NCBI GenBank assembly: GCA_963814275.1 | Contig: CAWFCE010000002.1 | Span: forward strand, 234,537-298,536 | Origin: Candidatus Parcubacteria bacterium | GTDB taxonomy: Bacteria; Patescibacteriota; Patescibacteriia; Patescibacteriales; UBA12075 | DNA: 64,000 nt | Direction of reading: 5' to 3' | Shown here: positions 4,217-29,219 of the stretch, piece after piece | How positions within the stretch are numbered: the stretch's first letter is position 1 | Layout of the letters: each line of letters begins with the position of its first letter | Made by a program: the position numbers and the translations under genes | Notes under the pieces: generated by a model | Database searches by the model: none | Seen by the model: only the letters and a program-made list of their open reading frames with translations | What the model was told of the DNA's origin: nothing

Positions 4217-4244
4217 AAATACATCTTGGCAATATTGAAGATAC

Positions 4245-5457: not shown

Positions 5458-5594
5458 GCATTCCGGTTTGCTTTATCGGTTTGACAAACACCGGCAAATT
5501 ATACTAAAATATTAAACACTTTATAGATTAAACATGCTTTGGTATAATAAAAAGTGTGCGATAACACTTTTTATTTATTATTAAAGATATATTT

Positions 5595-6642: not shown

Positions 6643-9615
6643 ATGCCGATCAAGCCGCTTAAAAACAAAAACAGCCAGCAGGGCTGGCGCAATGGAAAAA
6701 AGAAATACTACGTCAATCGCCAGAAACCGCCGACACTCAATTTGCGCCGGAATAACCACGGCTCCCGCCCCGGTTACAAAACCGGCGGCAGGCGGTGGGG
6801 CATGAAGCTGAAACGGGCGCTTCTTTGGAGTGTCCTGATCATCGGTGCGCTTGGCATATTGGGCAGCCTTTCCCTGGTGGCCTATATTTCCCGCGGCCTG
6901 CCCGATCCGGACAAACTATTGGACCGAGAAGTGCCGCAAAGCACGGTAATTTACGACCGCACCGGCACGCAGGTATTATATGATATTCACGGCGAAGTCA
7001 AACGAACATTGGTAACTCTGGATGATATTCCGGATTATGTGGAATGGGCGACGATTGCCATCGAAGACAAGGATTTCTACCACCATAGCGGCATCAGTCT
7101 GTGGGGTATTTTCCGCGGGGTCGTCTGGCAGGCCATCCGCGGCAGGTCGATCCAAGGCGGCTCGACCCTGACTCAGCAATTCATCAAAAATGCCATCCTG
7201 ACCAACGAACGGACAGTCACCCGCAAAATAAAAGAATGGCTATTGGCTTACAAAGTCGAACAGCGCTTTTCCAAAAATGAAATCCTGCAAATGTACCTCA
7301 ATGAAATTCCCTACGGTTCGACCGCCTACGGCGTTGAAGCCGCCAGCCAGCGCTATTTCGGCAAAAGCGTCCGGGACATCAATCTGGCCGAAGCGGCTAT
7401 TCTGGCGGCCTTGCCGCAAGCGCCCAGCCGCTATTCCCCCTATGGATCGAACAAGGACCTTCTGATATCGCGCCAGCACTATGTTCTCGATCTGATGGTG
7501 CAGCAAAAATACATAAGCCAGGAACAGGCTGATGAAGCCAAGCAGTATATTCTCGATTTCCAGCCGCCCACCGCCAATATCAAGGCGCCCCACTTCGTTA
7601 TGTATATCCGGGAAATGCTGGCGGATAAATACGGTGAAAAGGAGGTCGAACAGGGCGGACTGAAAATTATCACTACCCTGGACCTGTACAAACAGGAAAT
7701 AGCGGAAGAGGTCATCAAGGAGCACGCCGAACAGAACGAAGAAAAATACGACGCCACCAACGCGGGGTTGATTTCGATCGACCCGAAAACCGGACAAATC
7801 CTGGCCATGGTTGGTTCCCGGGATTACTTCAGCGAAGACATAGACGGACAGGTCAATATCACCACCTCGCTCCGCCAGCCCGGTTCGTCGATCAAGCCGC
7901 TGGTTTATTCAGCCGCTTTCCTCAAGGGCTATACGCCCAACACCGTTCTCTATGACGTGGTAACGAATTTTTCCAACGACCCCGACAACCCGTACGAACC
8001 GCATAACTATGACCTAAGCGAACACGGTCCGGTCACGATCCGCAAAGCCTTGGCAGGCTCACTCAATATTCCCGCCGTCAAGGCGATCTATCTCGCCGGC
8101 GTCGATAATGTCCTTGATCTGGCCCAGGAAATGGGCTATACGACCCTGGTCGACCATGACCGCTACGGCTTGGCCCTGGTTCTGGGGGGAGGCGAGGTCA
8201 AACTCCTGGAACACACGAACGCGTTTGGCGCTTTTGCGCGCGAGGGCGTCCGCAACGAGCCGACCGGCATATTGCGTGTCGAAGACCGCAACGGCAAAAT
8301 ACTGGAGGAATACAAAAGCGAAGATTCGAAAGTAATCGACCCCAAAGTCGCCCGGATGATCAATGACATACTGTCGGATAATGAAGCGCGCGCCTATACA
8401 TTCGGCGAGCGCAACTGGCTGACGCTCGGCGACCGGCCGGTGGCGGCCAAAACGGGCACGACCAACGATTACCGCGACGCCTGGACGATCGGCTACACTC
8501 CCTCCATTGTAACCGGCGTCTGGGTCGGCAATAACGATAATAGTGAAATGAAACGCGGAGCGGCCGGCGGCGTCGTAGCGGCGCCGATCTGGCACGATTA
8601 TATGGATCGGGTATTGGGCGATACGCCGGTCGAATATTTCAAAAAACCGGAAATCCCGAAAACCGGCAAGCCGATATTGGACGGCGAGGTGGGCTCGGCT
8701 CAGATTGTCAAAGTCGATAAAATCACCGGACTGCTGGCAACCGAGTATACACCAGCCGAATTAATAGAAGAAAAGTCCTATTTCGAACCGCACTCGATCC
8801 TCTTTTATGTCGATAAAAACGATCCTCTGGGCGCTGTCCCCGACGATCCGGGCCGAGACCCGCAATTCGACCTATGGGAATCCCGGGTAAAACTTTGGGC
8901 GGAAAAAGAATTGGCCAGCTCAACCGCCGCTGCGACCTCTTCGCTCCTGGGCGAAACTCCGCCGATGGAAAGCGACAACGTCCATTTGCCGGAAAACATC
9001 CCCCAGGTATCCATCGTCACTCCCGGGAATAACCAAACGATTACCGACCCGGAATTGGATGTCCGCCTTCAGGTAAGCGCTCCGCGCGGGGTAAAACGGG
9101 TGGACTACTTTTTGAATGACGCCTTATTCTATACGACCACCGACTATCCCTTCAATATGAAAAAATCGATCGACTTTCTCGGTAACGGTTTTCACAATCT
9201 GAAAATAAAAGTTTGCGACGACGTGGATAATTGCCAAACAAGGGAACTGGAATTTAACCTGGTGTTGTCGAATCATGCCGTTTCCGCCCCGACCGAGATA
9301 AACTGGGTTTCCCCTATGAGCGGCTTGGCCCTGTCCAATATCGACTTTCCTTTAACTCTGCAGTTAAAAACCAACAACCCGACTACGCTGGCAAAAATCA
9401 ACATTTCCTACCGCCGCCAGGAAGGCGACAATCCTGTCGTATTTATCGCCGCCGCCGAACCGGTTGACAGCCAAACCGTCTCGATCCGCTGGAATGACAT
9501 ACCCCCGAGCGGCACATACCAGATAGAAGCCGAGGCAGTGACCTGGGACAAACAATCCATCCGTCCGAAGCCGATCACGCTTATCATCAACAATATCACC
9601 AACAATAACGAATAA
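6643..9615 (+). CDS. class A penicillin-binding protein (transglycosylase + transpeptidase) with long C-terminal extension
   Basis: GT51 motifs (AIEDKDFYHHSGI, GGSTLTQQ, RKIKEW), transpeptidase motifs (SSIKP, SLN, KTGTT), an N-terminal TM segment, and ~330 aa after the transpeptidase domain. Confidence 0.9.
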   Translation: MPIKPLKNKNSQQGWRNGKKKYYVNRQKPPTLNLRRNNHGSRPGYKTGGRRWGMKLKRALLWSVLIIGALGILGSLSLVAYISRGLPDPDKLLDREVPQSTVIYDRTGTQVLYDIHGEVKRTLVTLDDIPDYVEWATIAIEDKDFYHHSGISLWGIFRGVVWQAIRGRSIQGGSTLTQQFIKNAILTNERTVTRKIKEWLLAYKVEQRFSKNEILQMYLNEIPYGSTAYGVEAASQRYFGKSVRDINLAEAAILAALPQAPSRYSPYGSNKDLLISRQHYVLDLMVQQKYISQEQADEAKQYILDFQPPTANIKAPHFVMYIREMLADKYGEKEVEQGGLKIITTLDLYKQEIAEEVIKEHAEQNEEKYDATNAGLISIDPKTGQILAMVGSRDYFSEDIDGQVNITTSLRQPGSSIKPLVYSAAFLKGYTPNTVLYDVVTNFSNDPDNPYEPHNYDLSEHGPVTIRKALAGSLNIPAVKAIYLAGVDNVLDLAQEMGYTTLVDHDRYGLALVLGGGEVKLLEHTNAFGAFAREGVRNEPTGILRVEDRNGKILEEYKSEDSKVIDPKVARMINDILSDNEARAYTFGERNWLTLGDRPVAAKTGTTNDYRDAWTIGYTPSIVTGVWVGNNDNSEMKRGAAGGVVAAPIWHDYMDRVLGDTPVEYFKKPEIPKTGKPILDGEVGSAQIVKVDKITGLLATEYTPAELIEEKSYFEPHSILFYVDKNDPLGAVPDDPGRDPQFDLWESRVKLWAEKELASSTAAATSSLLGETPPMESDNVHLPENIPQVSIVTPGNNQTITDPELDVRLQVSAPRGVKRVDYFLNDALFYTTTDYPFNMKKSIDFLGNGFHNLKIKVCDDVDNCQTRELEFNLVLSNHAVSAPTEINWVSPMSGLALSNIDFPLTLQLKTNNPTTLAKINISYRRQEGDNPVVFIAAAEPVDSQTVSIRWNDIPPSGTYQIEAEAVTWDKQSIRPKPITLIINNITNNNE

Positions 9616-9631
9616 TAAATTATTATTTCCA

Positions 9632-9660
9632 TAAAAAAAAGCCCCCTAGGGGCTTTTTTG
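9632..9660. terminator. bidirectional terminator between PBP gene and dnaN
   Basis: AAAAAAAAGCCCC-CTA-GGGGCTTTTTT, a palindromic GC stem flanked by A and T runs. Confidence 0.7.
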
Positions 9661-9677
9661 ATTTATGATAAAGGGAT

Positions 9678-10805
9678 TTATTGTTTGATCGGCATTATCA
9701 CGTATAAATATCCGGGGTTGTCTTTCGATTTCAAGACACACGGCGTGGCCCCGTCTATGATATTCAGGATTACCTGTTCGCTGTCGATATTGTTTATGCC
9801 ATCGAGCAAATAACGGAAATTAATAACGATGCCGTTGTCTTTTCCTTTCACCTGGGCAGTTAAATTAATGGTGTTCTCGCCCACCTGGCTCGATTCGGAA
9901 GTTACCGTTATCTGATTCTTCCCCAGGGGAAAATCAAGATTAATGTCATTGATGCCCGATTTTGCAAATATCGCCGCCGCCTTAACCGCCCGCAAAAGCT
10001 CGGTTTTATCGACTGACGCTTCCGTTTCCGGACGTTCGGGAATAATTTGCTCATAATCGGGATACTGTCCCTCGATCAGCCTGGAAATCAATTCAATGGA
10101 ATCGATTACGAACAAGATCTGATTGTCAGAAACATAGATTTCTATTTCCCGTTCGCCTTCTCCAGCCGTATCGATCTTCAGATTAGACAGGATGCGCACC
10201 ACTTCCTGCAGGGTCTTTGCCGGTACGATTATCTTCTTCTCCGCTTCGGCATTGGTCGATACCGCAATTTTACGCTCAGCCAAACGGTAGCTATCGGTTG
10301 CCGCCAGCACCAGCTCGTCTTTTTTGAAGTTCAACAAAACCCCGGACAATTCTATCCGGGTTTCCGAGTTCGATACGGAGAAAATCACCTGCGACAAGGC
10401 GCGTTTGAAATCTTCCGCTTTAACTTTGTAGTGATGCTCGCGCTCCACCTGCGGTATAAGAGGATATTCGTCGGCCGCCTGGCCATGGAGCACGGTTTTA
10501 TAATTATCGCATTGCACCTTAAGCCGGTTATCTTTGAGCGCAATATCGACTTTCTGGTTAGGTAGCAACGCTATATATTCGGACAATACCCGGGAATCGA
10601 CCGTGAACACCCCTTCTTCCTCGACTTTGCCGCGCACCGTGGCAACAATACCGATTTCCAGATCGGTCGTGGTCAGTTTTATATGGCCGCTTTCGGCCCG
10701 GATCAAAACATTATTCAAAATCGGGAGATTAACATTTTTACCGGCAATATGCCCCACAGTCATTAAAACGCTTTTTAAATTTTCCTGCAAACTGGAAATT
10801 TTCAT
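9678..10805 (-). CDS. dnaN: DNA polymerase III beta sliding clamp
   Basis: 375 aa. MKISSLQENLKSVLMTVGHIAGKNVNLPILNNVLIRAESGHIKLTTTDLEIG is typical of DnaN, and the gene lies directly downstream of dnaA. Confidence 0.93.
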   Translation of the reverse strand: MKISSLQENLKSVLMTVGHIAGKNVNLPILNNVLIRAESGHIKLTTTDLEIGIVATVRGKVEEEGVFTVDSRVLSEYIALLPNQKVDIALKDNRLKVQCDNYKTVLHGQAADEYPLIPQVEREHHYKVKAEDFKRALSQVIFSVSNSETRIELSGVLLNFKKDELVLAATDSYRLAERKIAVSTNAEAEKKIIVPAKTLQEVVRILSNLKIDTAGEGEREIEIYVSDNQILFVIDSIELISRLIEGQYPDYEQIIPERPETEASVDKTELLRAVKAAAIFAKSGINDINLDFPLGKNQITVTSESSQVGENTINLTAQVKGKDNGIVINFRYLLDGINNIDSEQVILNIIDGATPCVLKSKDNPGYLYVIMPIKQ

Positions 10806-16020: not shown

Positions 16021-16401
16021 TTATTTACCTGCTACAGCTGCCGTGCCCTCGTCTTTCCCCATCCGGCAATGGCCGTTTATGATCGCGCCCTTTTCGATTG
16101 ACAGCTGACCGGCGCTCAGGTCGCCCTTGATCCGGGCGCTTGCATTGACTTCGAGGTAGCCCGCGACGGTAATATTGCCGCTGACCCGGCCGCCGATACG
16201 GGCATCCTTGGCCTGGATGTCCGCGGTGATCACTGCCTTATCGCCTACCAGCAGGTGGTTGTTGGTTTTGACGCTGCCCTCGACCTCGCCTTCGATGACG
16301 ATATTGCCGTCACCATGGAAGTTGCCCTTGACTTTGACCGACTGGCCGATAATGGTTTCGGCCTGTTTGAGGCCGCTATCGTTGTTTTCGTTTTTGAACA
16401 T
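16021..16401 (-). CDS. bactofilin family cytoskeletal protein
   Basis: TIIGQSVKVKGNFHGDGNIVIEGEVEGSVKT..LLVGDKAVITADIQAKDARIGGRVSGNITVAGYLEVNASARIKGDL is the bactofilin beta-helix repeat pattern. Confidence 0.85.
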   Translation of the reverse strand: MFKNENNDSGLKQAETIIGQSVKVKGNFHGDGNIVIEGEVEGSVKTNNHLLVGDKAVITADIQAKDARIGGRVSGNITVAGYLEVNASARIKGDLSAGQLSIEKGAIINGHCRMGKDEGTAAVAGK

Positions 16402-16563
16402 AATTCGAATTTAAAGTAAAAAATATATGAATAATATATAATGGTTAAATAGCAACATCATCCTTATAATCGGAATACAATATTATTTTTAACTAAACTG
16501 GATAGCCTTAAAGCCCGGGTAAATTAAAGTATTGTTTGATTTTATATTAAACTAATTTTAAAT

Positions 16564-16598
16564 AAAAATCAACAAAAAACAACCTTAATAAGGGTTGT
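16564..16598 (-). terminator. rho-independent terminator (minus strand) following the structured RNA
   Basis: Minus strand reads ACAACC-CUUAUUA-GGUUGU followed by UUUUUGUUGAUUUUU. Confidence 0.5.
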
Positions 16599-16909
16599 AA
16601 TGTTTTTGCGACAAAATGTTTTGTGGGGGCGGGAATGCGAAACGCTTCCCGTTTGTCGGTTGTTTTGATCTACTATAAAGCACGGAGCGGATTTTACCGT
16701 TGGTACGGCGTCAGCCGTAAGACTGTTTAAAACAGCGATTGCTTACCCAAACGCTTTTGGAGCGGCGCGTGGAAATGGTTATTACAAGCAATCTGGATCT
16801 AGGTAATGATAAATACAATAAAGAGCTGATAACGGCGGGTTTCGAACAGTTTGCCGAATAACCGCCTTACTTCCTCTGTACCCCCGCAACACCTTTTGTC
16901 AGTGATTAT
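16599..16909 (-). ncRNA. unclassified structured RNA (~300 nt) with long-range closing helix
   Basis: Ends pair over 16 bp: GACAAAA 16610-16616 with TTTTGTC 16897-16903, and TTGTGGGGG 16619-16627 with CCCCCGCAA 16884-16892. At least six internal hairpins. No ORF. Minus strand assigned from promoter and terminator. One G-U pair in the closing helix would favour the plus strand. Confidence 0.5.
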
Positions 16910-16915
16910 TGATGT

Positions 16916-16943
16916 ATTATAGAATAGTGATGTTGCTAGGCAA
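16916..16943 (-). promoter_or_regulatory. sigma70-like promoter for the structured RNA
   Basis: Minus strand TTGCCT (16943-16938), 16 nt spacer, TATAAT (16921-16916). The closing helix starts ~13 nt downstream. Confidence 0.45.
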
Positions 16944-17028
16944 TTAAATTTTTCTTAAAATAAAGTAAAATAGTTAATTTGCGAACTTAAGCCATTTATA
17001 GATGCTATAAGGAGAGGTGATTAAACAT

Positions 17029-17490
17029 TTATATTCGTTTCGACATATAGACATCGTGGTGGTCCAGATGCTTCCTGATCTTGTCCGTGCGGTAACCCAG
17101 GTGTTTGTAATAATCCGGCAATCTCTTCTCACGGGCGCAATCCAGGGTAATCCGGTGGCAGCCTTTTCGTCTGGCTAATCGCTCAACGCATTTGACCATT
17201 TTCGCGCCGAGCCCCCGGTTGCGGCAACTTTTCAAGACGGCCAGTTGGTAAATATATAAAACGTTATTGGCAAGCATTTTATATTTAACCGCACCGACTA
17301 TGCGGCCGTTGATGATTGCCACGATCGTGAAAAATTCCTTGTTGTGGAAACGAAAATGGATATTTTTCGGTACGTGCGGTATGGTCGTTCTGGCGCCGCT
17401 TATGTAGGGAATCCGGTAGGCCATTCGGGTAACCGCGATAACCCGGCGTAATTCCGCCGGCCGGCCTTGCCTGATAGTAATTTTTGTCAT
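17029..17490 (-). CDS. GNAT family N-acetyltransferase
   Basis: QLAVLKSCRNRGLGAKMVKCVERLARRKG is the acetyl-CoA binding motif (Q/RxxGxG/A). Confidence 0.8.
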   Translation of the reverse strand: MTKITIRQGRPAELRRVIAVTRMAYRIPYISGARTTIPHVPKNIHFRFHNKEFFTIVAIINGRIVGAVKYKMLANNVLYIYQLAVLKSCRNRGLGAKMVKCVERLARRKGCHRITLDCAREKRLPDYYKHLGYRTDKIRKHLDHHDVYMSKRI

Positions 17491-17573
17491 AAGCTTATAG
17501 GCATTGCCATTCTGGAATTATTATGTTAACATAATTTGTTATAAATATAATATAAAAAAGGAGGTAAGCTTGA

Positions 17574-17804
17574 ATGGCTAATTTTAAATTCGTTTTATGT
17601 AATCATTGCCAGGCAGAAATTTTGTTGGCGGGCAAAAAACACATCCCCCTAAACAAAAATATCGGAGAAGCTGACAGCGTAACCCGATGCACAAATTGCC
17701 AGTGTGAAGTTCTTTACAATAGTAAGACGCTTAAGGTAGTGGACTTTAGTAAGGTCGAGCAAGAGCGTCTTGTGTTGCGCGCAATGCAGGCGGTAGGCAG
17801 ATAA
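17574..17804 (+). CDS. small zinc-ribbon-like protein
   Basis: GGAGG RBS upstream. Two CxxC pairs (CNHC...CTNCQC). 76 aa. Confidence 0.5.
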   Translation: MANFKFVLCNHCQAEILLAGKKHIPLNKNIGEADSVTRCTNCQCEVLYNSKTLKVVDFSKVEQERLVLRAMQAVGR

Positions 17805-17826
17805 TACCGCTCCATGCCTTGCCCCT

Positions 17827-17859
17827 ATCGGCAGTCTCAGTCTGGGCTGCCGATTTTTA
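17827..17859. terminator. bidirectional terminator
   Basis: ATCGGCAG-TCTCAGTCTGGG-CTGCCGAT followed by TTTTTATTTTTT. Lies between convergent genes. Confidence 0.6.
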
Positions 17860-18210
17860 TTTTTTCATTTTGACGCGGCAAAAACCTTCAAAGCGGATAT
17901 CACCCCCTTTGAATACTTCTACAACCCGGTATTTTCCCCGGGTATAGGCAAGGTTATTTTCGATAAAGTGGGTGGCTTCGAGAATGATTATACTCGCTTT
18001 CGGCCGGGACAATACTTCATTGCCCTTGGTCTCGATCAGGGGGATTTCCCCGAAGAGCCAATAGTTCCGATGGTCGCGCTTCAGAAAAGAGTAAATTTCT
18101 CCGGCCGTCAGGTCATTCGGGATGCATTCCTCGATCCGACGGTTGCCGTTCTGGTATTCAGCTATATTGCGGAGCGCCAAATCCGGGTTGTATTCGACTT
18201 TAATTCCCAT
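17857..18210 (-). CDS. hypothetical protein
   Basis: 117-aa ORF with no overlapping better frame. No motif recognised. Confidence 0.5.
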   Translation of the reverse strand: MGIKVEYNPDLALRNIAEYQNGNRRIEECIPNDLTAGEIYSFLKRDHRNYWLFGEIPLIETKGNEVLSRPKASIIILEATHFIENNLAYTRGKYRVVEVFKGGDIRFEGFCRVKMKK

Positions 18211-18231
18211 ACTTTTTAATAAATTATCGAA

Positions 18232-18849
18232 TTATTTTTTTACGCTGTCTTTTATCATTTTCACGATCTCCGGGAATTCAGTGATTTGGAAATGCCCCTT
18301 GATGTGTTTGTAGATGATTATGTCCGCGCGTTTAAGCTTCTTCCGGTATTTTTCCGCGTGGACCGGTGGAACCACCTCATCTCTGGCCGAAAAGAAAAGT
18401 TTGAGGTTGGGGCAATTTATTTCAAGTAACGACAGGTTGGATTTAAGCGTAAAACCGCCCACCAGATCCTCAGTGGAGTGGCTGTTGTCATAAGGCGGAG
18501 CGACCAGATAGACGGACCGGATCTTTTTCGGGAATTTATGTTCGGACAGGTATTTGGCCAGGAAGATCCCGCCCAGGGAAGTGCCGACCAGGATCACGCC
18601 GTTTTTCATCAGCGGAATATATCGTTCGAAATATATCCGCCAATCTTCATAGCGCGCGTTCTCCGCCAGGGGCATCATGGGCCGGATGATATCGAATTCA
18701 CGATCCAGTTTATGTTCCAGGTACTCCCCTTTCCAGCTTGGTTTCTTGGTCAGTTTAACCTCCTTGGTCCGGAGGTAATGAAGGAAATCGCGGCGGCTTT
18801 TGAAGGTTATGCCGCCGTGGATTATGAAAATTTGCTTTTTTCTTGACAT
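18232..18849 (-). CDS. alpha/beta serine hydrolase (YdeN/RBBP9-like)
   Basis: Nucleophile elbow VGTSLGG, ~200 aa, late His in IKGHF. Confidence 0.7.
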   Translation of the reverse strand: MSRKKQIFIIHGGITFKSRRDFLHYLRTKEVKLTKKPSWKGEYLEHKLDREFDIIRPMMPLAENARYEDWRIYFERYIPLMKNGVILVGTSLGGIFLAKYLSEHKFPKKIRSVYLVAPPYDNSHSTEDLVGGFTLKSNLSLLEINCPNLKLFFSARDEVVPPVHAEKYRKKLKRADIIIYKHIKGHFQITEFPEIVKMIKDSVKK

Positions 18850-18863
18850 AGGTTTAAATTAAT

Positions 18864-18892
18864 TTGACAATATAAAAGGCTTAGTATATTAT
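18864..18892 (+). promoter_or_regulatory. sigma70-like promoter of the tRNA-like gene
   Basis: TTGACA 18864-18869, 17 nt spacer, TATTAT 18887-18892. Confidence 0.5.
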
Positions 18893-18918
18893 AAAAAAAT
18901 CGTTCCTTGTGTTTTTAT

Positions 18919-18994
18919 GGGGGAAAATGACAGTCGTCAGCGCCGGCCCACCAAGCCGGAGTCGCAGGAGTTTCGAGACCTGCTTCCCCCGCCA
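18919..18994 (+). ncRNA. atypical tRNA-like RNA (76 nt, Gly-like ACC anticodon position, encoded GCCA end)
   Basis: 7-bp acceptor GGGGGAA/TTCCCCC then G-CCA. 5-bp anticodon stem CCGGC/GCCGG with 7-nt loop CCACCAA. D arm reduced to TGAC-AGTC-GTCA (no GG). T arm GCAGG/CCTGC with a 10-nt loop AGTTTCGAGA. Confidence 0.5.
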
Positions 18995-19003
18995 AAAAAT
19001 CAT

Positions 19004-19035
19004 GAGAGCCTTTAACATTCGGCTCTCTTTTTTTT
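19004..19035 (+). terminator. rho-independent terminator after tRNA-like gene
   Basis: GAGAGCC-TTTAACATTC-GGCTCTC followed by TTTTTTTT. Confidence 0.7.
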
Positions 19036-19104
19036 GTCTAAATATCTTTGGGAAGCGGAGGATGGTTTATCCTCCGTTAGGGGGTTGGCGCCTTTGGCGT
19101 TCTG

Positions 19105-19281
19105 CTATTTCGGTTCCGGTTTTTCTTTGTTCTGGATCTCGAGTGCTTTGGCTTTCCAATCTTTGATCGTTTTGGCGATCCGGTACACGGTATCGGTCGA
19201 AGACTTGCCCCTTGACCGTATGGCCTGGTTGCGTGCGAAAATATTGTGCTGCCGCCAGCTGAAATAAGGTTTTGTCCTCAT
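19105..19281 (-). CDS. small basic hypothetical protein (58 aa)
   Basis: Not in the ORF track. AGGAGG (19293-19288) lies 6 nt before ATG 19281. Encodes MRTKPYFSWRQHNIFARNQAIRSRGKSSTDTVYRIAKTIKDWKAKALEIQNKEKPEPK. Preferred over the overlapping GTG-started 73-aa frame. Confidence 0.4.
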   Translation of the reverse strand: MRTKPYFSWRQHNIFARNQAIRSRGKSSTDTVYRIAKTIKDWKAKALEIQNKEKPEPK

Positions 19282-19406
19282 TCTGCACCTCCTTTGTTTA
19301 TTTGAATGTTGCGCTTCCCGGAGATATTTAATTATTATTTTGAATTGACAGTTAAATTATTATATGAAATATTAATATAATTTGCCAAGCATTTTATTAC
19401 TATTGA

Positions 19407-19871
19407 TTAACATTTTAGGCGTTTCCTAGCCTGTTCAATAAACTTGAAATCGCGGTTGTTCATCGCGATCTCATCCGGTTTTTTGCTCCTGACATTCGCG
19501 AACAGTTCAGCGGCCTCTTCAAAAGTCCGCCAGATCAGGTGGAAATTGTTGTCTTTTTCCTCGTTGGTAAAGTTCGTCGCCAGAAGGTCACGGGTTTTTT
19601 TGGCCAGGAAGCAGACCGAATGGTTGATCAGATCCGGGAATTCCGGGGTTTCGAACTGGGACTCGTCCAGACGGGCAATGATCTCGACATCGCAGGCCGC
19701 TTCCTCGCGCGCTTCCCGCCGGGCGGCTGCTTCCGGATTTTCGCCCTCCTCGATCTCGCCGCCGGGGATCTTATGGTAATCCCCGTCTTTAACTTCCAGG
19801 ACGGCGATCTTACCGCTGTTCCCGTCCAGCACGACAGTTCGCGCCGCCCTTCGGATTTTTTTATTGATCAT
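19407..19871 (-). CDS. NUDIX hydrolase
   Basis: Nudix box GGEIEEGENPEAAARREAREEAACDV. Confidence 0.8.
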   Translation of the reverse strand: MINKKIRRAARTVVLDGNSGKIAVLEVKDGDYHKIPGGEIEEGENPEAAARREAREEAACDVEIIARLDESQFETPEFPDLINHSVCFLAKKTRDLLATNFTNEEKDNNFHLIWRTFEEAAELFANVRSKKPDEIAMNNRDFKFIEQARKRLKC

Positions 19872-19887
19872 AAATAAAAATTGCTAA

Positions 19888-20142
19888 TTATTTTTTTGTC
19901 AGGTTTTCCAAATCGACCGCCAGATCATCGAAGCGGTTTTTCAATAAATGATTAGCGTCTGCCACGCCTTTGTTATAGAGGGCGGATCCGGCAGTCTGCA
20001 AAAACATATCCAGGATATTTTCGGCGGCGATGACCCCGACCTCCTCATCCCGCTCATTTTGGAAATATTCGATTATTGCCTCAATTGTCGATCTCCTTTT
20101 TTCATCAGGCAATAAATCGTTTTGGCGTTTGCTTTCTTTCAT
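19888..20142 (-). CDS. DUF2164-like small protein
   Basis: IEAIIEYFQNERDEEVGVIAAENILDMFLQTAGSALYNKGVADA resembles the DUF2164 family pattern as I recall it. Confidence 0.55.
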   Translation of the reverse strand: MKESKRQNDLLPDEKRRSTIEAIIEYFQNERDEEVGVIAAENILDMFLQTAGSALYNKGVADANHLLKNRFDDLAVDLENLTKK

Positions 20143-20189
20143 ATTGCGTAGTTAACTTTAAATTGATTTTTCCCTAGAGGCACACTGCG

Positions 20190-20522
20190 CTAAACCTGGT
20201 TTTTAGCCAGATTGATGATCGTCAATACCAGACCGACCACAAAGATCGCCGTAAAAATAGTTTTGTTGTGTTTGGCCAGCCACCGGGGCAGATAAATATC
20301 GAAATTGGGATTCCGGTCAGCCGTATATTTGGCTGCCAGCGGCGTCAGCGGGCAGGTCCATTTGTTCCAGACCAATACCACTGACTCCAGTATGACCAGA
20401 ATGATCGAGGCCAGGACTAGCGCGTTGAAAGTGCCGGCCAGCCCGGCATAGAGGACATAAATGACAGCCGAGGCCATCACGGCCCAGACAGCGGTATGGA
20501 TAAGTTTAATTGCTTTGATCAT
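20190..20522 (-). CDS. small membrane protein (DUF2784-like)
   Basis: Three predicted TM segments with a conserved-looking WTCPLTPLAAKY motif. Confidence 0.5.
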   Translation of the reverse strand: MIKAIKLIHTAVWAVMASAVIYVLYAGLAGTFNALVLASIILVILESVVLVWNKWTCPLTPLAAKYTADRNPNFDIYLPRWLAKHNKTIFTAIFVVGLVLTIINLAKNQV

Positions 20523-20642
20523 AAATGGACTGTTGCGCGGTTCTTATAATATTATAAGAACATTGGACGATATTCAATTTATGTGATAATGTATAATTTC
20601 TTTAAATTAATAATATCATAAATACAAAAGGAGGAAATCACG

Positions 20643-20942
20643 ATGAAACGTATAAAAGTATTGGTAGCGATTGTTTTGGTTCTCGTGTCCTTGTTTCCGA
20701 TGATGGTTGTCTATGCCGGGAACTTTGCGTACAAAGATTTTAAACGGGGAGATTTCATCGAACTCACGGACGGGAAGTTCTATTGGGTGCAGGACAAGCT
20801 TGACGAACAGAACATAGACGTCAGGCAGTATCAAATTTTTTGGAAAAGTTTTACCTGGAAAGAACTTAAAAAGGAGTTGAAAGCGATTTACAAGCCCGGC
20901 ACTAATGGATGGTGCGAAATGTCGCAAGAGTATTTGAAATAA
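20643..20942 (+). CDS. small secreted protein
   Basis: AAAGGAGG RBS. Signal-peptide-like N-terminus MKRIKVLVAIVLVLVSLFPMMVVYA. Confidence 0.6.
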   Translation: MKRIKVLVAIVLVLVSLFPMMVVYAGNFAYKDFKRGDFIELTDGKFYWVQDKLDEQNIDVRQYQIFWKSFTWKELKKELKAIYKPGTNGWCEMSQEYLK

Positions 20943-20986
20943 ACACGTTCCTGACCGCATATCAGAGGAAGCCAGCCCCAGCTGAT

Positions 20987-21346
20987 TTATCTGCCGGGGC
21001 TTTTTATTTGCCAATTGGCTGTCAGGGTCAGCGCAGTTGGCGGCAACAGTAGAATGGTAAAGCCGATCACTACCGGCATATAGTAGTCGAAGAGCAGCGT
21101 GCCGGCAAGCGCCGTGATTATGGCCGCGATCAAACCGTAAACAAGATTATATTTCGTTTTCTGTAATTTTTTTACGATCATTATCGCAAGCAGACTACCG
21201 AGTGAGATTCCCAAAATACCGAAAAAGGCGCCGCCGGCTTCGTAGCCGACGTTGCCGCCGAATTCGAAAAAGCCGTAATTACCACCGATATAGGAGCCCG
21301 CTACAAGGCCGAAGATCCCAAACAGCATGCCGCCCAGGAGGCTCAC
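20987..21346 (-). CDS. glycine-zipper membrane protein
   Basis: Gly-rich TM segments (GGMLFGIFGLVAGSYIGGNYG...GAFFGILGISLGS). Start uncertain (GTG). Confidence 0.5.
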   Translation of the reverse strand: MSLLGGMLFGIFGLVAGSYIGGNYGFFEFGGNVGYEAGGAFFGILGISLGSLLAIMIVKKLQKTKYNLVYGLIAAIITALAGTLLFDYYMPVVIGFTILLLPPTALTLTANWQIKSPGR

Positions 21347-21449
21347 AATAAATTGAATGAATATTGTTATTCAAAAATAAATTTATGGAAAATAAATATT
21401 TTCAGGAAGCGGGAAAGCCGGATGAGGCTTTCCCGGATTTTACGAAGAG

Positions 21450-21668
21450 CTAAGCCAGCGCGACCATCAGAAGGGCGTCCGCAAATTTTTCAATGGTACC
21501 CCATTCTTTGCCTGTGAAGCTGGCTAATCCCGGTTCACATTCATACCTGGTTTCGGGATAAATATGCCTTTCCCTTTGTTCATGTATGAACATGACTGTT
21601 ACGTCTGACGGGTTTATCCCCATGTCTTGTGCAATAGCATCGGTAAAAATTTTTTCCAAATTTGGCAT
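21450..21668 (-). CDS. hypothetical small protein
   Basis: AGGAGG RBS 6 nt upstream of ATG. 72 aa. 17 nt downstream of the RHH-like gene. Confidence 0.5.
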   Translation of the reverse strand: MPNLEKIFTDAIAQDMGINPSDVTVMFIHEQRERHIYPETRYECEPGLASFTGKEWGTIEKFADALLMVALA

Positions 21669-21685
21669 TTATGACCTCCTTTGTA

Positions 21686-21883
21686 TCATTTCTTTTTTTC
21701 GAACAATCTCCTTCTTTGCGTTTCACGAATTTCTTTTTGCGCCACTGCGGGCAGAATCTTGATTAATTGGTGCGCGAGCTCTCCGGATGATTCGCCGGAT
21801 TCTATACGCTGGTCGCGGCGCCTGTAGATATCTGCTATGCTAAGATTAATTCTGACCGGCGGAAAAAATTTATTTCGAGTCAT
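21686..21883 (-). CDS. ribbon-helix-helix-like small protein
   Basis: AAGGAGG RBS. VRINLSIADIYRRRDQRIESGESSGELAHQLIKIL fits a strand-helix-helix (CopG/Arc-like) layout. Confidence 0.4.
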   Translation of the reverse strand: MTRNKFFPPVRINLSIADIYRRRDQRIESGESSGELAHQLIKILPAVAQKEIRETQRRRLFEKKK

Positions 21884-22043
21884 TTGATCCTCCTTATGGT
21901 TTTGTAATTGGCTTCCTGAAAATATTCATTTCTTATGCGGCAACTCTAATTACCCACTACCGGATTTTATTCTTATTAGTGCGATTGGTTTTTATCGGGC
22001 GGCAAAATATTTTTAGAGGGGAGGCATTAAATGTTAATGCCGA

Positions 22044-22271
22044 TTAAGTTACAGATTTTAACAAAAGATCATGGGTATGCCAGGCCGCCATATCTTTGGC
22101 GCAGGCAACGATAAGCGCGATGGCGAAGTAGGCGGTGAAAAACCAGTCACCGATGATGAAGAAAACGATCGTCAGCATGAGTATATCGAAGAAAACAGAA
22201 GTTATTACCTGGGCGTCGGTCTTGTGCGCTTCCCGCATTTCCTGTTCGAAATATTGGTTGATCGGATCCAT
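22044..22271 (-). CDS. small membrane protein
   Basis: GGAGGGAAGGAGG upstream of ATG 22271, with two TM segments. The longer upstream extension in the track is unlikely. Confidence 0.5.
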   Translation of the reverse strand: MDPINQYFEQEMREAHKTDAQVITSVFFDILMLTIVFFIIGDWFFTAYFAIALIVACAKDMAAWHTHDLLLKSVT

Positions 22272-22424
22272 AGCACCTCCTTCCCTCCCCCTCTGAAAAT
22301 ATTTTGTCAAAGATGGAATGCCGGGAGCGGATTCTGAGCTCCCGGCAATCAATTAAAAGTTCGTTGTTAGGAATGTCGAATGTACGTTTGACTGTTTCTG
22401 TGCATCCGGCCAGATCACCAGTCG

Positions 22425-22874
22425 CTATGGCGAGATACGCTTGATCGTGCGGTCTTGGCGGTTGAGCTCCCAGGCTTCGCTTTTTTCGACAGCATGACAG
22501 TAGCCGTCAATGCCGAATTCCGTCAGATAATTGTCCGTTAGATATTCGGTGTATTCCAGATGGGTGACTACAATGACGGCATCAGTCTTGCTGGCTACGG
22601 CATCGATCAGTATTTGGGATTCTTCCAGGTTTCCCCCGTGCCCTTTGTCGTTCCAGAGCGCCTCATGCTCTTCGACCGGACATTTAAGTACATTGCCGAT
22701 TGCCCTGGCGCTGTCCGCCGCGCGCGGCGCCGACGAGGCCAATATCTTGACCGAGGCGCCGTTCAGTCTGGAGTGGATCTTCCCGGCCAGAATAGTCATT
22801 TGTTCCCACCCGTCAGGCGTAAGCATGCGGGCTGAATCATAGGGACCGTGCCTTACAATGTACAGTTTATCCAT
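22425..22874 (-). CDS. histidine phosphatase family protein (SixA/PGAM-like)
   Basis: N-terminal LYIVRHGP (RHG motif) and a later VVTHLEY His motif. Confidence 0.75.
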   Translation of the reverse strand: MDKLYIVRHGPYDSARMLTPDGWEQMTILAGKIHSRLNGASVKILASSAPRAADSARAIGNVLKCPVEEHEALWNDKGHGGNLEESQILIDAVASKTDAVIVVTHLEYTEYLTDNYLTEFGIDGYCHAVEKSEAWELNRQDRTIKRISP

Positions 22875-22933
22875 TTCTTCCTCCTTCGGTCTTATTTTCC
22901 TGTTTTCTATTTAGCGATTTTTTACACCCAGTT

Positions 22934-23119
22934 TCAGACCAAAAAGCCATTCCCGATGCCGAATTTCCGGCACCATTCCAGATATTTCCTGTTGAGCGGA
23001 TGCGGCGAAGGCGGCACTTTGATCATGTTGTCTTTGCAGCGCAATCCTCTCGGCAGGGCTTTTTTCATTTCTTCGGTTACCCCGGTAATGATAGTGTGTC
23101 TTTCCCATTTGATTGCCAT
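22934..23119 (-). CDS. hypothetical small protein
   Basis: AAAGGAGG RBS upstream of ATG 23119. 61 aa. Confidence 0.45.
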   Translation of the reverse strand: MAIKWERHTIITGVTEEMKKALPRGLRCKDNMIKVPPSPHPLNRKYLEWCRKFGIGNGFLV

Positions 23120-23213
23120 CGATGTGCACCTCCTTTACTGTTTTTATTATTACGGACATTTAATCAATCGATAAAATGTTTATGGGTAGGGTGAGGAGTG
23201 CCGTTTTTCCCGA

Positions 23214-23492
23214 CTAAAGGCCAAGCGCTGAATGGTATTCGATGCGTTCCCAGGTTCTGGGATTGGCTTTTGCCTGATCTTTACTTAGGTTATAAAGAAT
23301 CATCGTTCCGTGGCAATTTTTTGTTTTGCATCCGATGTGATCGGCATCGCGCATTTCATCATGCCAGAAAATCCGCGCCAGGCCGCAATCTGGGCATATA
23401 TAAACCAGGAGTCTTTCCCAGTCTTTGATCTTTCCATTTTGATAGACAAGTCCGTACCGCACAACCCTTAAGAGAAAATTATTTCCGTGCAT
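23214..23492 (-). CDS. hypothetical Cys/His-containing protein
   Basis: AAGGAGGG RBS. CPDC...HIGCKTKNCH suggests a zinc site. Confidence 0.5.
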   Translation of the reverse strand: MHGNNFLLRVVRYGLVYQNGKIKDWERLLVYICPDCGLARIFWHDEMRDADHIGCKTKNCHGTMILYNLSKDQAKANPRTWERIEYHSALGL

Positions 23493-23701
23493 ATTCCCTC
23501 CTTTTCCCGCATAACGGCAATCTTTTGTATTATAGAATGCTTTTGCTTTTTGTTTCGTCGTCTTGAGCGAAGCGGAAGGCCACTTATCACGTCTCGCTCC
23601 GTTCGAAATGGCAAAAATAACGAGGCAATTATTATGTGTTAATGTTTTTGGTCTTGGGCATGATTTTGACGGGGTGTCCGCTCGGTTTTTTCATACAAAA
23701 A

Positions 23702-24049
23702 TTATTCCATCACTTCGATCTTGTTCCCGTCAGGGTCGGCCAGCGCGAATGTTTTGCCCCAGCTTGCCTCCTGTAGGCCCTTGGTTATCGTGGCTTTTTT
23801 GTCCAGTAACGCTTGATATATTTTCTCGATATTTTCGGTTTTTAAAATCACGGTTTGCCGGCCGGGAACTTTTTCCGGTGTGTTTGCCATGTTAACGGCC
23901 AGACAAGTGCGGTCATTTACATTAGCCTTGAAGGCGACGTAATTCCCCTGGTCGCTCACCAAAGTGAAGCCCAGGGTTTCCAGATAGAACTTTTTGGACT
24001 CCTCAATGTCTTTGGTATAGAAAATTACGGCATAGAGAGAATTGAACAT
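23702..24049 (-). CDS. VOC (glyoxalase/bleomycin-resistance) family protein
   Basis: 115 aa. FYTKDIEESKKFYLETLGF...ALADPDGNKIEV is a typical VOC fold signature. Confidence 0.8.
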   Translation of the reverse strand: MFNSLYAVIFYTKDIEESKKFYLETLGFTLVSDQGNYVAFKANVNDRTCLAVNMANTPEKVPGRQTVILKTENIEKIYQALLDKKATITKGLQEASWGKTFALADPDGNKIEVME

Positions 24050-24075
24050 AGGTAATTTAAATAAAAAGCAAGTTA

Positions 24076-24549
24076 TTACAAATCGACTTCCAAAGTCAGG
24101 GCATAGTCTTTGAAATGGTTTTTTCGATAAAATTTGATGGCTAATTCATTCTGGGCAGAGGCTTCAACCTTTACCTTGCCGACTTTCTTTTCCCTGCACC
24201 AGACAAGAAATTCGTCGTAAAGTTGTTTGCCTATCCCCTTCGACCGGTAATCCTCCTGGACGAAAGTGTTTTCCAGTTCGGCCACAAGCGGTAGTTTCCG
24301 GTAAACCTCTGCCTTGGTTAATCCGCCGCAAAGGTAACCGACGATTTCGTTATCGGCCAGGGCGACCAGAACGCAGCCGTCATCCTTGGCGATCCTGTTT
24401 TGGAAGTATCCGGTTCCAGCCTCACCGAAAGTCCAGCCCAGGTCCAGTAATGGGTCATATTCTTTGTATTCTTTCTCGAATAGCTTGAAGTTCAATTCCT
24501 GGATCTTTTGCAGGTCATTTAGGTCCGCTGTTTTGATCGTAATATTCAT
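24076..24549 (-). CDS. GNAT family N-acetyltransferase
   Basis: FVQEDYRSKGIGKQLYDEFLVWCREKK acetyl-CoA motif. Confidence 0.85.
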   Translation of the reverse strand: MNITIKTADLNDLQKIQELNFKLFEKEYKEYDPLLDLGWTFGEAGTGYFQNRIAKDDGCVLVALADNEIVGYLCGGLTKAEVYRKLPLVAELENTFVQEDYRSKGIGKQLYDEFLVWCREKKVGKVKVEASAQNELAIKFYRKNHFKDYALTLEVDL

Positions 24550-24563
24550 ACTTGCTTTTTGTT

Positions 24564-24866
24564 TTAGAGTTTAACTAATAAGCCAGAGATAATAAGATAT
24601 TGCGCGAGTTCTAATCCGATAGAAAACATAAATGCGGTTAAAAAATCATAGCCCAGAAATTTCATTATCACCATTAAATTGATTATAGCGGCAAATAAAG
24701 CCCCCAGTATGCCCAGCATTTTGCCAAGAGTGCTGACAATAACCAAAACAAGCGCGAGCAAAGAAATTCTTTTTATTTTATCGTTAATGCCATGGTCAAA
24801 TAAGGTAACCAATAACCAAAGACTGATAAAAGAGATAAGAAACGAAATAATAAACGGCACAATCAT
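24564..24866 (-). CDS. small membrane protein
   Basis: 100 aa, three hydrophobic segments. Confidence 0.5.
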   Translation of the reverse strand: MIVPFIISFLISFISLWLLVTLFDHGINDKIKRISLLALVLVIVSTLGKMLGILGALFAAIINLMVIMKFLGYDFLTAFMFSIGLELAQYLIISGLLVKL

Positions 24867-25035
24867 TTAATAAGAAATTATGAATCAAATATGTATACAT
24901 AATATCGCCTGGGATATCGGCGTATTTGATATTTCATTACAGCTGCAACTCGCCAAAGCGGAAACTGAACTCAGAAGTGTGAGCGTTAAGAATAACATTA
25001 CATTTTTTCTGACTATTTATAGTCGCCTTTCAGGG

Positions 25036-25599
25036 CTAGCTAGCGTCTGCGTCCTGGTCTGCGTCATTATTACAATATTTTAAATAAGTATCGATTGCAC
25101 TGTCAATGATATTAATGTTTTTTATCGTTTTACTTTTTGGGTTTTTCGCATATTCTTTTATCCAAACCAATGAATCGTGCGCAGATTCTGCTATTAGATC
25201 CGAAGTTGTCAATAAAAATGGACTTATCCAATCGGATATCATGATGCCGTTAAATACAACGTTAGAACGTCGGTGATGCGTGTTCTTCGGAAGGATCGTA
25301 ACCACTGGTCGTGAAAAATATTTTGCCACTATAATTTCTTGTGCAGTACCTGCACCGATACCAGTACCGATTTCTTTCTCCGCGTTAACGATTACAAGGT
25401 CCGAGGTTTTGACAAGATTAGCAGCATGACCAAAAAGCAAGAATGGTTTTGTGTCATCTTTCCAGGTATCACCATCCATAAAATCAACATTACTAAGTTG
25501 AGAAAAAATTTCTTTATAATGCGTTTTCCAGTCGTCCCATTTATTTCTGTTATCATCGCCCTTGGGAACGGATCCGGCTAAAAATATTTTGAACAGCAT
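25036..25599 (-). CDS. nucleoside 2-deoxyribosyltransferase-like / YtoQ-like protein
   Basis: MLFKIFLAGSVPKG...SDLVIVNAEKEIGTGIGAGTAQEIIVAKYFSRPVV resembles the NDT-like flavodoxin fold. ATG 25599 preferred over TTG 25641. Confidence 0.5.
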   Translation of the reverse strand: MLFKIFLAGSVPKGDDNRNKWDDWKTHYKEIFSQLSNVDFMDGDTWKDDTKPFLLFGHAANLVKTSDLVIVNAEKEIGTGIGAGTAQEIIVAKYFSRPVVTILPKNTHHRRSNVVFNGIMISDWISPFLLTTSDLIAESAHDSLVWIKEYAKNPKSKTIKNINIIDSAIDTYLKYCNNDADQDADAS

Positions 25600-26126
25600 A
25601 GTAACAGAATGCCTAAAATTAATTCCGAATATGAGTAGCAAATTTAAATTATAAGTTATATCTGGACTTAACGAGTTCCTACTTTAATCCTAGCTCAATA
25701 ATATGTATAAGGCAAGGCGGACAGACAAGAATAATAGGGTAAATATTGGTATTTGGGACGCTTGCCAAATCCGTAAAACTACATTATTATAATATTATTG
25801 TTAGATAGTGAATTTTCGGTAGTTTGTTTGAAAAATAAGAATACGAATTGGCACAAACTGGAGACGAATGATCACCAACGATTTTAACTAGTGTATACAT
25901 TATATATACAAGCAAAATCCCCTGCTTGCTCGTGAATATAAGGACTGGTCTTAAACAATTTATAAAGAAAATCTAAAGAAGATTTAAAGATGTTATAAAG
26001 CCGGAAAGATTCCGGCGTAGTTTTTGTTTACACGTTAAATATAGTATTATAGAACTATAGTAATATAGTACTATATATATTGTATAGCGGATCCATGAAC
26101 CCCGGGAAGAGGCAGCGTGAGTATTC

Positions 26127-28322: not shown

Positions 28323-28445
28323 TTGTTGGCCAGTTGTGAAATAAGTAAAACGGACAACACCAGTTGTTCGTTTTTAGAAGTATTTAGATAACAGACAACA
28401 GTTATTAGATGATTATGCTTTTTGCTATCTGTTGGCTAGAATTCA

Positions 28446-29075
28446 ATGCTCGATTTAAGAACCGAACAAATTTATTGGTTAAGAGGTTATAGGATTATCG
28501 GCGCGATTGACGAAGCCGGGCGCGGCCCCCTGGCCGGACCGGTGGTGGCGGCCTGCGTGCTGGTCCCGGCCGATTTCACAATGCCCGATTCTTTGGCCGG
28601 TGTTAAAGATTCCAAAAAGCTTACGGCAAAAAAGCGGGAAGAGTTGTATGATGAGATCATGGACGCATTTGCGGAAGTCGGGGTCGGGATCTGCGATCAC
28701 GCGGCGATCGACCGTATCAATATCCTGGAGGCGACCTTCCTGGCGATGAAGAAAGCTTTGGGCACCCTCAGGCGCAAACCGGATATAGCCCTGATCGACG
28801 GCAACCGGCCGATCCCCAACAGCTCACTGGTCCAAAAGCCGATCGTCAAAGGCGATGCCCGGGTATTTTCGATTGCCGCCGCCTCGATCATCGCCAAAGT
28901 CACCCGCGACCGGCTGATGCTTGCGTTCCATGAGCGATATCCGAAGTATGGCTTTGATAAACATAAAGGCTACGGTACGAAACAGCATCTGGAATGTCTG
29001 GAGAAGTACGGACCGTGCGAAATACATCGGAAAAGCTTTGCGCCAGTCAAGAAGCACATGGCACATATCACGTAG
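28446..29075 (+). CDS. rnhB: ribonuclease HII
   Basis: GAIDEAGRGPLAGPVVAA...DSKKL...KGDA...SIIAKV...GYG is the canonical RNase HII motif set. Confidence 0.9.
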   Translation: MLDLRTEQIYWLRGYRIIGAIDEAGRGPLAGPVVAACVLVPADFTMPDSLAGVKDSKKLTAKKREELYDEIMDAFAEVGVGICDHAAIDRINILEATFLAMKKALGTLRRKPDIALIDGNRPIPNSSLVQKPIVKGDARVFSIAAASIIAKVTRDRLMLAFHERYPKYGFDKHKGYGTKQHLECLEKYGPCEIHRKSFAPVKKHMAHIT

Positions 29076-29155: not shown

Positions 29156-29219
29156 CTTGTCCATTCCCGCTAAATTCAGTATAATTAGATTAAGGCGATT
29201 ATTTTTAAAAAGCCAATGT

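Follow-up and report, generated by a model that had tools for sequence, protein, structure and literature searches.

Inverted-repeat brackets around small transcription units in a Patescibacteria lineage and an element without a reading frame that may belong to them

The present study concerns a stretch of 64,000 nt from contig CAWFCE010000002.1 of Candidatus Parcubacteria bacterium (the window) and within it an intergenic element at positions 16610-16900 (element a), for which a new class of highly structured RNA had been predicted. Element a is a real, lineage-specific unit of the minus strand with a length of approximately 330 nt, without an open reading frame (ORF) and without known relatives. 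We give about even credence to the view that it belongs, as a member without an ORF, to a family of transcription units which are bracketed by inverted repeats and are typical of this lineage of Patescibacteria (Parcubacteria/Falkowbacteria-like). Judged from the sequence, its closing helix, its first hairpin and the placement of its putative promoter and terminator are shared with units that encode proteins. The proposal of a new RNA class is therefore unsupported, as the interior of the element is at genome background and its closing parts are common to coding units. The bracket family looks undescribed and is the more interesting lead; a search of the literature on structured RNAs, gene-flanking repeats and integrons in Patescibacteria retrieved nothing relevant.

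Bracketed units in the window and in related genomes

Element a is located in a gap of 627 bp between a bactofilin gene (16021-16401) and a GNAT gene assigned by Pfam (17029-17490), both on the minus strand. Its ends, GACAAAATGTTTTGTGGGGG (16610-16629) and CCCCCGCAACACCTTTTGTC (16881-16900), form an inverted repeat with 17 of 20 positions complementary, and shuffles of the window yielded no comparable match. The original prediction had extended this helix to 16903; the repeat is real, and the helix ends at 16900. Read on the minus strand, the element consists of a promoter-like site, a 20-nt 5' arm, a body of approximately 230 nt, a hairpin, a 20-nt 3' arm and a terminator-like structure (Table 1). 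The predicted minus-strand signals are indeed present, namely TTGCCT-16-TATAAT at 16943..16916 (10 of 12 consensus matches) and the ACAACC/GGTTGT hairpin with its T-tract at 16598..16579, the extended stem of which appears in the minimum-free-energy fold. However, promoter-like sites are not enriched in this A+T-rich gap (three versus 2.9 expected from shuffles). Together, these signals are consistent with an independent transcription unit on the minus strand, about 330-340 nt long, which is plausible.

A scan for inverted arms with at least 17 of 20 complementary positions, 150-1200 nt apart, detected ten such repeats in the window compared to 1.3 in shuffled sequences. Four of the ten, the best matched from 16.6 to 22.3 kb, have an arm motif in common; they delimit element a (unit a) and the units b, c and d, which lie 2.5-5.5 kb from it and bracket ordinary small protein genes with Shine-Dalgarno sites. 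The helix had been taken to close a dedicated RNA domain, a claim that is not supported, since related arms and the same type of hairpin bracket small protein genes both here and in relatives. We define the family by two inverted arms of approximately 20 nt that are related to GACAAAAT.TTTT...GGGG or to AAATAAATATTTTTAGGAAG and are 250-1000 nt apart. With a position weight matrix, the arms of element a score 20.9 and 14.9 versus 21-26 for those of units b, c and d. The alignment of all four units further reveals a stable hairpin directly before the 3' arm. In element a this is the first of the hairpins listed in the original prediction (16630-16651) and it is of the G+C-rich GGGAAG...CUUCCC type that, read on the sense strand, immediately precedes the 3' arm in the family. 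At the place where the other units carry a Shine-Dalgarno site followed by an ORF, element a possesses only AAGGCGG, one mismatch away from the AAGGAGG of the family, and we class it as an atypical member or one without an ORF.

Unit d is laid out like element a: its 5' arm is preceded by a promoter-like site (19388..19359; 11 of 12 matches), and its 3' arm is followed by a terminator hairpin. Unit b encloses GGAGG, an ATG, the gene of a hydrophobic protein of 75 amino acids (22044-22271) and a hairpin (22023-22041). The interiors of the bracketed units are unrelated to one another. The strand of element a, which had been left open before, can be assigned as minus because of this common architecture, in spite of one wobble position to which we return below.

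The arm motif is not restricted to the window. AAATAAATATTTTTAGGAAG forms inverted pairs with 19-20 of 20 matching positions around genes in three related genomes (designated L003, L014 and L017). The upstream copy is always located 15-25 nt before AAGGAGG and the downstream copy always directly after a GGGAA...TTCCC hairpin, and differences between the pairs of these genomes are compensated within each pair. A second pair in L003 uses the variant arm AATAAAATACTTTTAGAAGG and is perfectly complementary (20/20) around a gene for 57 amino acids. The gene of the first unit in L003 and the second gene in unit c are orthologous, and the arms are far better conserved than the protein. Two more distant Patescibacteria, L007 and L010, contain other bracket pairs, some of them nested and some sharing GTTATCGGAAATA.

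We counted 42 repeats with at least 17/20 matches in 111 kb of sequence from relatives versus 5.8 expected, and 12 versus 0.3 at a threshold of at least 18/20. A control of 50 kb from E. coli gave four repeats with at least 17/20 matches, all of them inside coding sequence according to the gene table, and none with at least 18/20. Long-range repeats of this kind are therefore approximately 8-40 times enriched in this lineage. Brackets also surround tRNA genes: in the window, a 14-bp leader/trailer stem (60244-60346) extends the acceptor stem of a tRNA-Arg, and in another relative (L008, 4635-4835) a 17/20 repeat links the sequence directly behind the 3' end of a tRNA with a site approximately 85 nt before that tRNA. 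We tentatively propose, at rather less than even confidence, that Patescibacteria of this group wrap single transcription units (mRNAs, tRNA precursors and one ORF-less unit) in matched brackets of approximately 20 nt throughout the genome.

Taken alone, element a is an orphan without conservation and of modest interest as a candidate RNA. The special interest lies in the strong enrichment of gene-bracketing long-range repeats in this candidate-phyla-radiation group, where the arm motif is kept while the enclosed genes diverge or differ altogether. If this bracket system exists as proposed, element a would be its first ORF-less example, whether as a small RNA dedicated to its own end-clamped form or as a cassette caught in the course of decay.

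Table 1. Features of element a, bracketed units in the window and in related genomes, and fold z scores
Feature	Position	Strand	Remarks
Element a: promoter-like site TTGCCT-16-TATAAT	16916..16943	minus	outside the 5' arm; predicted start ~16909; prediction only
Element a: 5' bracket arm GACAAAAGGUGUUGCGGGGG	16881..16900	minus	akin to arms of units b, c and d
Element a: ORF-less body	16652..16880	minus	opens with purine-rich AGAGGAAGUAAGGCGG; several short hairpins
Element a: stable hairpin CGGGAAGCG-UUU-CGCAUUCCCG	16630..16651	minus	abuts the 3' arm; standard 3' hairpin of the family
Element a: 3' bracket arm CCCCCACAAAACAUUUUGUC	16610..16629	minus	17/20 partner of the 5' arm
Element a: intrinsic-terminator-like hairpin ACAACC/GGUUGU	16568..16609	minus	outside the 3' arm; upstream A-tract, downstream U-tract
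Unit a	16610-16900	minus	no ORF
Unit d	19038-19331	minus	arms 19038-19057 / 19312-19331; AAGGAGG, then basic protein of 58 aa (ORF 19105-19281)
Unit c	21390-21931	minus	arms 21390-21410 / 21911-21931; small genes for 65 aa (21686-21883) and 72 aa (21450-21668)
Unit b	22001-22308	minus	arms GGCAAAATATTTTTAGAGGGG (22001-22021) / CCCCTCTGAAAATATTTTGTC (22288-22308)
L003 brackets	2902-3232 and 3261-3524		one pair AAATAAATATTTTTAGGAAG around a 72-aa gene; the other with variant arms around a 57-aa gene
L014 bracket	320-1365		AAATAAATATTTTTAGGAAG pair around ornithine carbamoyltransferase gene
L017 bracket	1594-1901		AAATAAATATTTTTAGGAAG pair around a 64-aa gene
L010 brackets	3859-4801, 4945-5515 and 9465-10370		
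L007 bracket	6793-7580		
Fold: whole predicted transcript of element a	16909-16566	minus	z = -4.34
Fold: domain with arms	16600-16910	minus	z = -3.42
Fold: domain with arms	16600-16910	plus	z = -2.83
Fold: interior only, 249 nt		minus	z = -2.02
Fold: interior only, 249 nt		plus	z = -1.28

Possible pairing of the arms in RNA or recognition in DNA

Among eight units from four genomes, 94% of the arm positions are complementary and 12 of 21 pairs are changed on both sides. Neither any of 500 shuffles nor any slid register approaches these values. The arms are situated between the predicted promoter and the ribosome site on one side, and between the stop codon and the terminator on the other. Arms in L010 overlap the stop codon of the gene that they enclose and are situated within the adjacent convergent gene. 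The placement of the arms, this overlap and the bracketing of tRNA genes favour pairing at the RNA level.

On this basis, unit a would be transcribed into an RNA of approximately 330 nt, in which the two arms would pair with each other and stack on the 3' hairpin, thereby clamping the 5' and 3' ends together. A duplex of 20 bp has the size of an RNase III substrate. Such an end clamp might control the access of RNases and, in the coding units, also that of ribosomes. If true, it would represent a general clamp of 5' and 3' ends for processing, stability or translation in organisms whose RNA-decay machinery is minimal.

Several observations weigh against this interpretation. The covariation of the arms is partly circular, since the units had been picked by a scan for inverted repeats; the enrichment counts, unlike the covariation, are independent evidence for the brackets. 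The transition mismatches in gene-bracketing arms are G-U on the sense strand in four cases and G-U on the antisense strand (A-C on the sense strand) in eleven, the reverse of the pattern expected under selection for pairing in mRNA. The single wobble-type position in the helix of element a, already noted in the original prediction, is likewise G-U on the plus strand. The near identity of a 20-nt arm across genera suggests recognition of the sequence beyond pairing alone. Moreover, element a has the most degenerate arms in the family (17/20; two of the mismatches are not of the wobble type), its promoter and terminator are consensus matches only, and the survey comprises just about 175 kb of this lineage.

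The wobble asymmetry and the conserved arm sequence fit a role in DNA. The brackets could be the ends of a mobile or recombining cassette, similar to a miniature inverted-repeat transposable element (MITE), a mobile insertion cassette or an integron cassette, or else the ends of an invertible segment that a site-specific recombinase flips, and element a would then be a cassette without cargo. In the integron-like variant, a palindromic site is split on integration. We regard a DNA-level role as unlikely, but several observations speak for it. The arm sequence is conserved across genera and loci, partner arms match each other better than the arm of the neighbouring unit in the same gap (L003), and the mismatches display no bias toward G-U on the sense strand. 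The units are part of a variable array of small accessory genes on one strand, and element a is an insertion relative to the corresponding loci of relatives. With regard to inversion, the antisense reading of the 3'-arm hairpin gives a U-rich run behind it in units a and c and in L014, so that inversion would stop transcription early.

MITEs and mobile insertion cassettes share with the bracketed units the terminal inverted repeats of 20 bp, the body of 250-1000 bp, the occurrence at several loci and, for element a, the insertion with respect to sister genomes. However, a convincing target-site duplication is lacking: units a, b and d are not flanked by one, nor are the three units from relatives that were checked, and only unit c has a possible 5-bp duplication (TTATG). 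The interiors are unrelated to each other, and promoter and terminator lie outside the repeats. We therefore rejected a MITE or mobile insertion cassette in the strict sense. Pfam scans of 29 ORFs, which are part of the ORFs of the window, revealed no transposase, integrase or invertase. The similarity to invertons consists of inverted repeats of approximately 20 bp that occur at several loci and follow a family consensus, and of a promoter outside the segment. A single orientation was seen in the sequences covered, which may set the units apart from invertons: all eight units read are co-oriented with their neighbours, and a second, independent assembly of this strain shows units a and d collinear and in the same orientation. 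Finally, the L010 arms that overlap a stop codon and a convergent neighbour are awkward for a mobile or invertible segment, and the bracketing of tRNA genes does not fit it either. On balance, we place the RNA clamp ahead of a DNA cassette or switch, albeit not by much. Should the brackets nevertheless act in DNA, they would constitute a new gene-cassette boundary or recombination system in a lineage with poorly known mobile elements.

Within the bracket family, element a could have two origins. It may be a decayed small-gene cassette, an explanation that falls just short of an even chance and is based on AAGGCGG in the place of AAGGAGG and on arms that are the most degenerate among the four units. 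The other possibility, which we hold with somewhat more reserve, is a non-coding RNA with the same end clamp.

A clamp of this kind would have precedents. In the hok mRNA, a fold-back (fbi) element pairs the ends of the transcript. Long-range pairing between the 5' and 3' untranslated regions (UTRs) of a single mRNA has been described for icaR of Staphylococcus aureus (PMC3868564) and for hbs of Bacillus subtilis (PMC5737220). As in these three cases, a stretch near the 5' end of a bracketed unit would pair with one located behind the stop codon in its own transcript, and the duplex would be long enough for RNase III. The 3' partner is rich in C and U in the bracketed units (CUUCC, CCCCUC, CCCCC) and in icaR (UCCCCUG), and unit b encodes a small hydrophobic protein, as does hok. 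However, icaR, hbs and hok are single gene-specific cases with 7-14 bp, whereas the brackets have arms of 19-21 bp with a shared motif around many unrelated genes and across genera. The bracket arms also leave the ribosome site itself uncovered, and element a has no ORF at all. In addition, the putative pairing of the bracket arms in RNA is not favoured by the wobble pattern, which marks a further difference from these mRNAs. If the RNA clamp is real, icaR, hbs and hok would become instances of a general transcript design in reduced genomes.

A second resemblance concerns processing stalks, which flank rRNA and some tRNA precursors and are substrates of RNase III. They, too, consist of complementary leader and trailer sequences around a stable RNA, as seen for the bracketed tRNA-Arg of the window and the tRNA of L008, and an ORF-less unit with its own promoter and terminator resembles the precursor of a stable RNA. 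However, the enclosed 250 nt of element a match no known stable RNA and are not conserved in relatives.

Interior and locus of element a

The earlier statement that element a belongs to no known RNA family was borne out. The Rfam 15 covariance models, applied to the 64-kb window at the gathering score, retrieved six tRNAs only and nothing at element a. With lax filters and E ≤ 10, region 16400-17030 gave just three matches at chance level (STnc240, K10_TLS and mir-360; 16-19 bits), and ARAGORN identified no tRNA or tmRNA between 16 and 17 kb. RNase P RNA deserves a separate remark, as motifs like CR-I, CR-III and CR-V occur in this order on the minus strand. In RNase P RNA, the helices P1, P2 and P3 are followed by the 5' strand of P4, the 3' strand of P4 is located between the 3' strands of P2 and P1, and CR-I and CR-V are conserved. 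Since the halves of the closing helix of element a are only 2-4 nt apart on either strand, there is no room for the 3' strand of P4, and RNase P RNA is excluded by this topology on both strands, besides the absence of an Rfam match. The gene rnpA for the protein subunit of RNase P is located nearby; we did not count it as evidence for RNase P RNA.

Conservation in relatives, named in the original prediction as a check, was not found. Searching 19 relatives' loci (15 distinct contigs) with nhmmer returned element a in the same strain only, together with one spurious match inside dnaA of L008. A blastn search against phages and plasmids gave nothing, and the same was true for exact 18-22-mers from the two junctions of the element in viral and metagenome contigs. 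No candidate was confirmed in a metagenome scan with six wobble-tolerant 24-nt probes across the element (pseudo-protein from stop-free frames). The interior occurs only once in the window and has no further copy in any of the relatives' loci. As there is no homologue, covariation is not demonstrable for the interior.

The claim that the gap contains no credible ORF was also correct. Pfam yielded no match in any frame, a comparison of all minus-strand frames with 5.8 billion proteins gave nothing at E ≤ 1, local tblastn produced noise only, and no ORF with a ribosome site exists inside the element. The codon log-odds of the interior are -0.03 in the best frame, compared to 0.04 to 0.32 for true small genes and -0.23 to -0.35 for A+T-rich gaps. 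Element a may still be a decayed orphan gene, since small cassette proteins evolve fast. A pseudogene of a known family received no support from the same Pfam, tblastn and protein searches, nor from the metagenome contigs, in which no relative was confirmed.

All hairpins listed in the original prediction exist at their places. In order to judge how structured the element is, we folded 344-nt windows across the whole 64 kb (minus strand, 20 dinucleotide shuffles each), which gave a mean z of -0.98 with a standard deviation of 1.66 and a 5th percentile of -4.5. The description as highly structured applies to the whole predicted transcript (z = -4.34), but not to the interior: with z values of -2.02 and -1.28 on the two strands it is not more structured than the genome background, and its hairpins are ordinary for this genome. 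The fold signal of element a stems from the arms and the terminator, and the interior hairpins provide no evidence of an evolved tertiary fold.

These results bear on the explanation originally favoured, namely a new, independently transcribed structured RNA, in which the long-range helix would close a functional multi-helix fold on the lines of ribozymes, riboswitch-like leaders or large ornate RNAs. We consider it improbable. In its favour, the element is a G+C island (0.46-0.47 versus 0.21-0.34 in the flanks) within an A+T-rich gap, it has no ORF, it possesses its own promoter-like site and terminator, and the transcript as a whole folds stably. Furthermore, the junction AAAACAACC (16660-16668) is perfectly complementary to GGUUGUUUU (16576-16584, the 3' arm of the terminator and the U-tract on the minus strand). 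This pairing would be an alternative that competes with the terminator and would permit riboswitch-like switching. In location, G+C content, number of hairpins and lack of an ORF, the element resembles the large structured RNAs OLE, ROOL, GOLLD, raiA and HEARO, bacterial Rfam families of unknown function; it differs from them in having neither a covariance-model match nor a homologue, nor interior covariation, nor interior stability above background. Protein-coding units have the closing helix and the hairpin next to it as well, so that both are generic parts of the family, and the element is not found at the same position in the closest relatives. For genome scans, the practical consequence is that in these genomes a long closing helix with internal hairpins does not in itself constitute evidence of a structured non-coding RNA.

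The neighbouring proteins place the window in Patescibacteria, near metagenome-assembled genomes of Parcubacteria and Falkowbacteria. The locus is close to dnaA, rpmH, rnpA, yidD and yidC; replication origin features such as DnaA boxes were not seen by eye at element a. One Logan assembly contains the same strain (99.84% identical and collinear, including through units a and d). The nearest relatives among 5.8 billion proteins share 71% (bactofilin) or 56% (GNAT) amino acid identity. Relatives' loci, which we obtained via the diacylglycerol-kinase-like, GNAT and bactofilin proteins, keep bactofilin beside the diacylglycerol-kinase-like gene, and in most of them the yidC-yidD-rnpA block lies alongside; in the nearest relatives the gene order is bactofilin, diacylglycerol-kinase-like gene, yidC. 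The genes upstream of bactofilin differ, and the gap, which measures only approximately 110-220 nt in the closest relatives that were read (L004, L014, L017 and L018), is devoid of similar sequence. Element a thus appears as a lineage-specific insertion into a variable spot.

Alternatively, element a might not be a separate unit, but might belong to the GNAT mRNA as its 3' UTR or to the bactofilin operon as a long 5' leader or an attenuator. The stretch from the GNAT stop codon (17029) to the element has no terminator, and that from the terminator (16579) to the start codon of bactofilin at 16401 revealed no strong promoter. In addition, an A+T-rich inverted repeat (17/20; 16398-16417 and 17581-17600) spans the GNAT gene and element a and covers the bactofilin start codon with its lower arm; it may be due to chance, since approximately 1.3 such repeats are expected per window. 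However, a good promoter-like site lies directly before the 5' arm and a strong terminator directly after the 3' arm, and the sister unit d is equally self-contained. Relatives express bactofilin without element a, and GNAT genes beside bactofilin in relatives, such as that of L017, are unrelated to the GNAT gene of the window. We therefore find it very doubtful that element a is a mere UTR or leader.

Further observations in the window and in relatives

The region 17000-25700 comprises accessory genes of small size, of which almost all lie on the minus strand; among them are two GNAT genes, a NUDIX gene and genes for a serine hydrolase, a DUF2164 protein, a glyoxalase and a histidine phosphatase, as well as several orphans. 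This part of the genome varies from one relative to the next and has the appearance of a cassette array, in which no integrase was seen. A further minus-strand gene of 92 amino acids (23214-23560) ends with CCCTACCCATAAACATTTTATC (23170-23190), which resembles the 3' arm of element a; its 5' partner is weak, and it may be a degenerate fifth unit.

We also considered the arm motif as a promoter and rejected this, since candidate -35 boxes are located at inconsistent distances of 12-19 nt from the TATTTT inside the motif. In the distant genomes L007 and L010, two nested pairs occur per gene, and an arm type GTTATCGGAAATA.T.AAAA is common to both genomes around apparently different genes.

Other 344-nt windows on the minus strand reach z values of -5 to -8, namely 52117-52480, 28209-28552, 1549-2064, 37841-38184 and 18749-19092. 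The first of them holds a tRNA-Glu and a repeated arm (52349-52373) that pairs with both 52423-52447 and 52455-52479, and the last overlaps the 3' arm of unit d and the gap directly downstream. Between the RNase HII and methyltransferase genes, an inverted repeat of 37 nt (29048-29159) is 86% complementary with 38 nt between its arms, each of which contains repeated GCACAT units.

Upstream of bactofilin in L003, a segment of approximately 125 nt (4489-4612) is closed by GATTAGAG/CTCTAATC, and a hairpin CCCTCTCCTTCTAAAGGAGAGGGG is common to L003 (4700-4750) and L014 (1640-1710), again upstream of bactofilin. Neither of the two has a match in Rfam.

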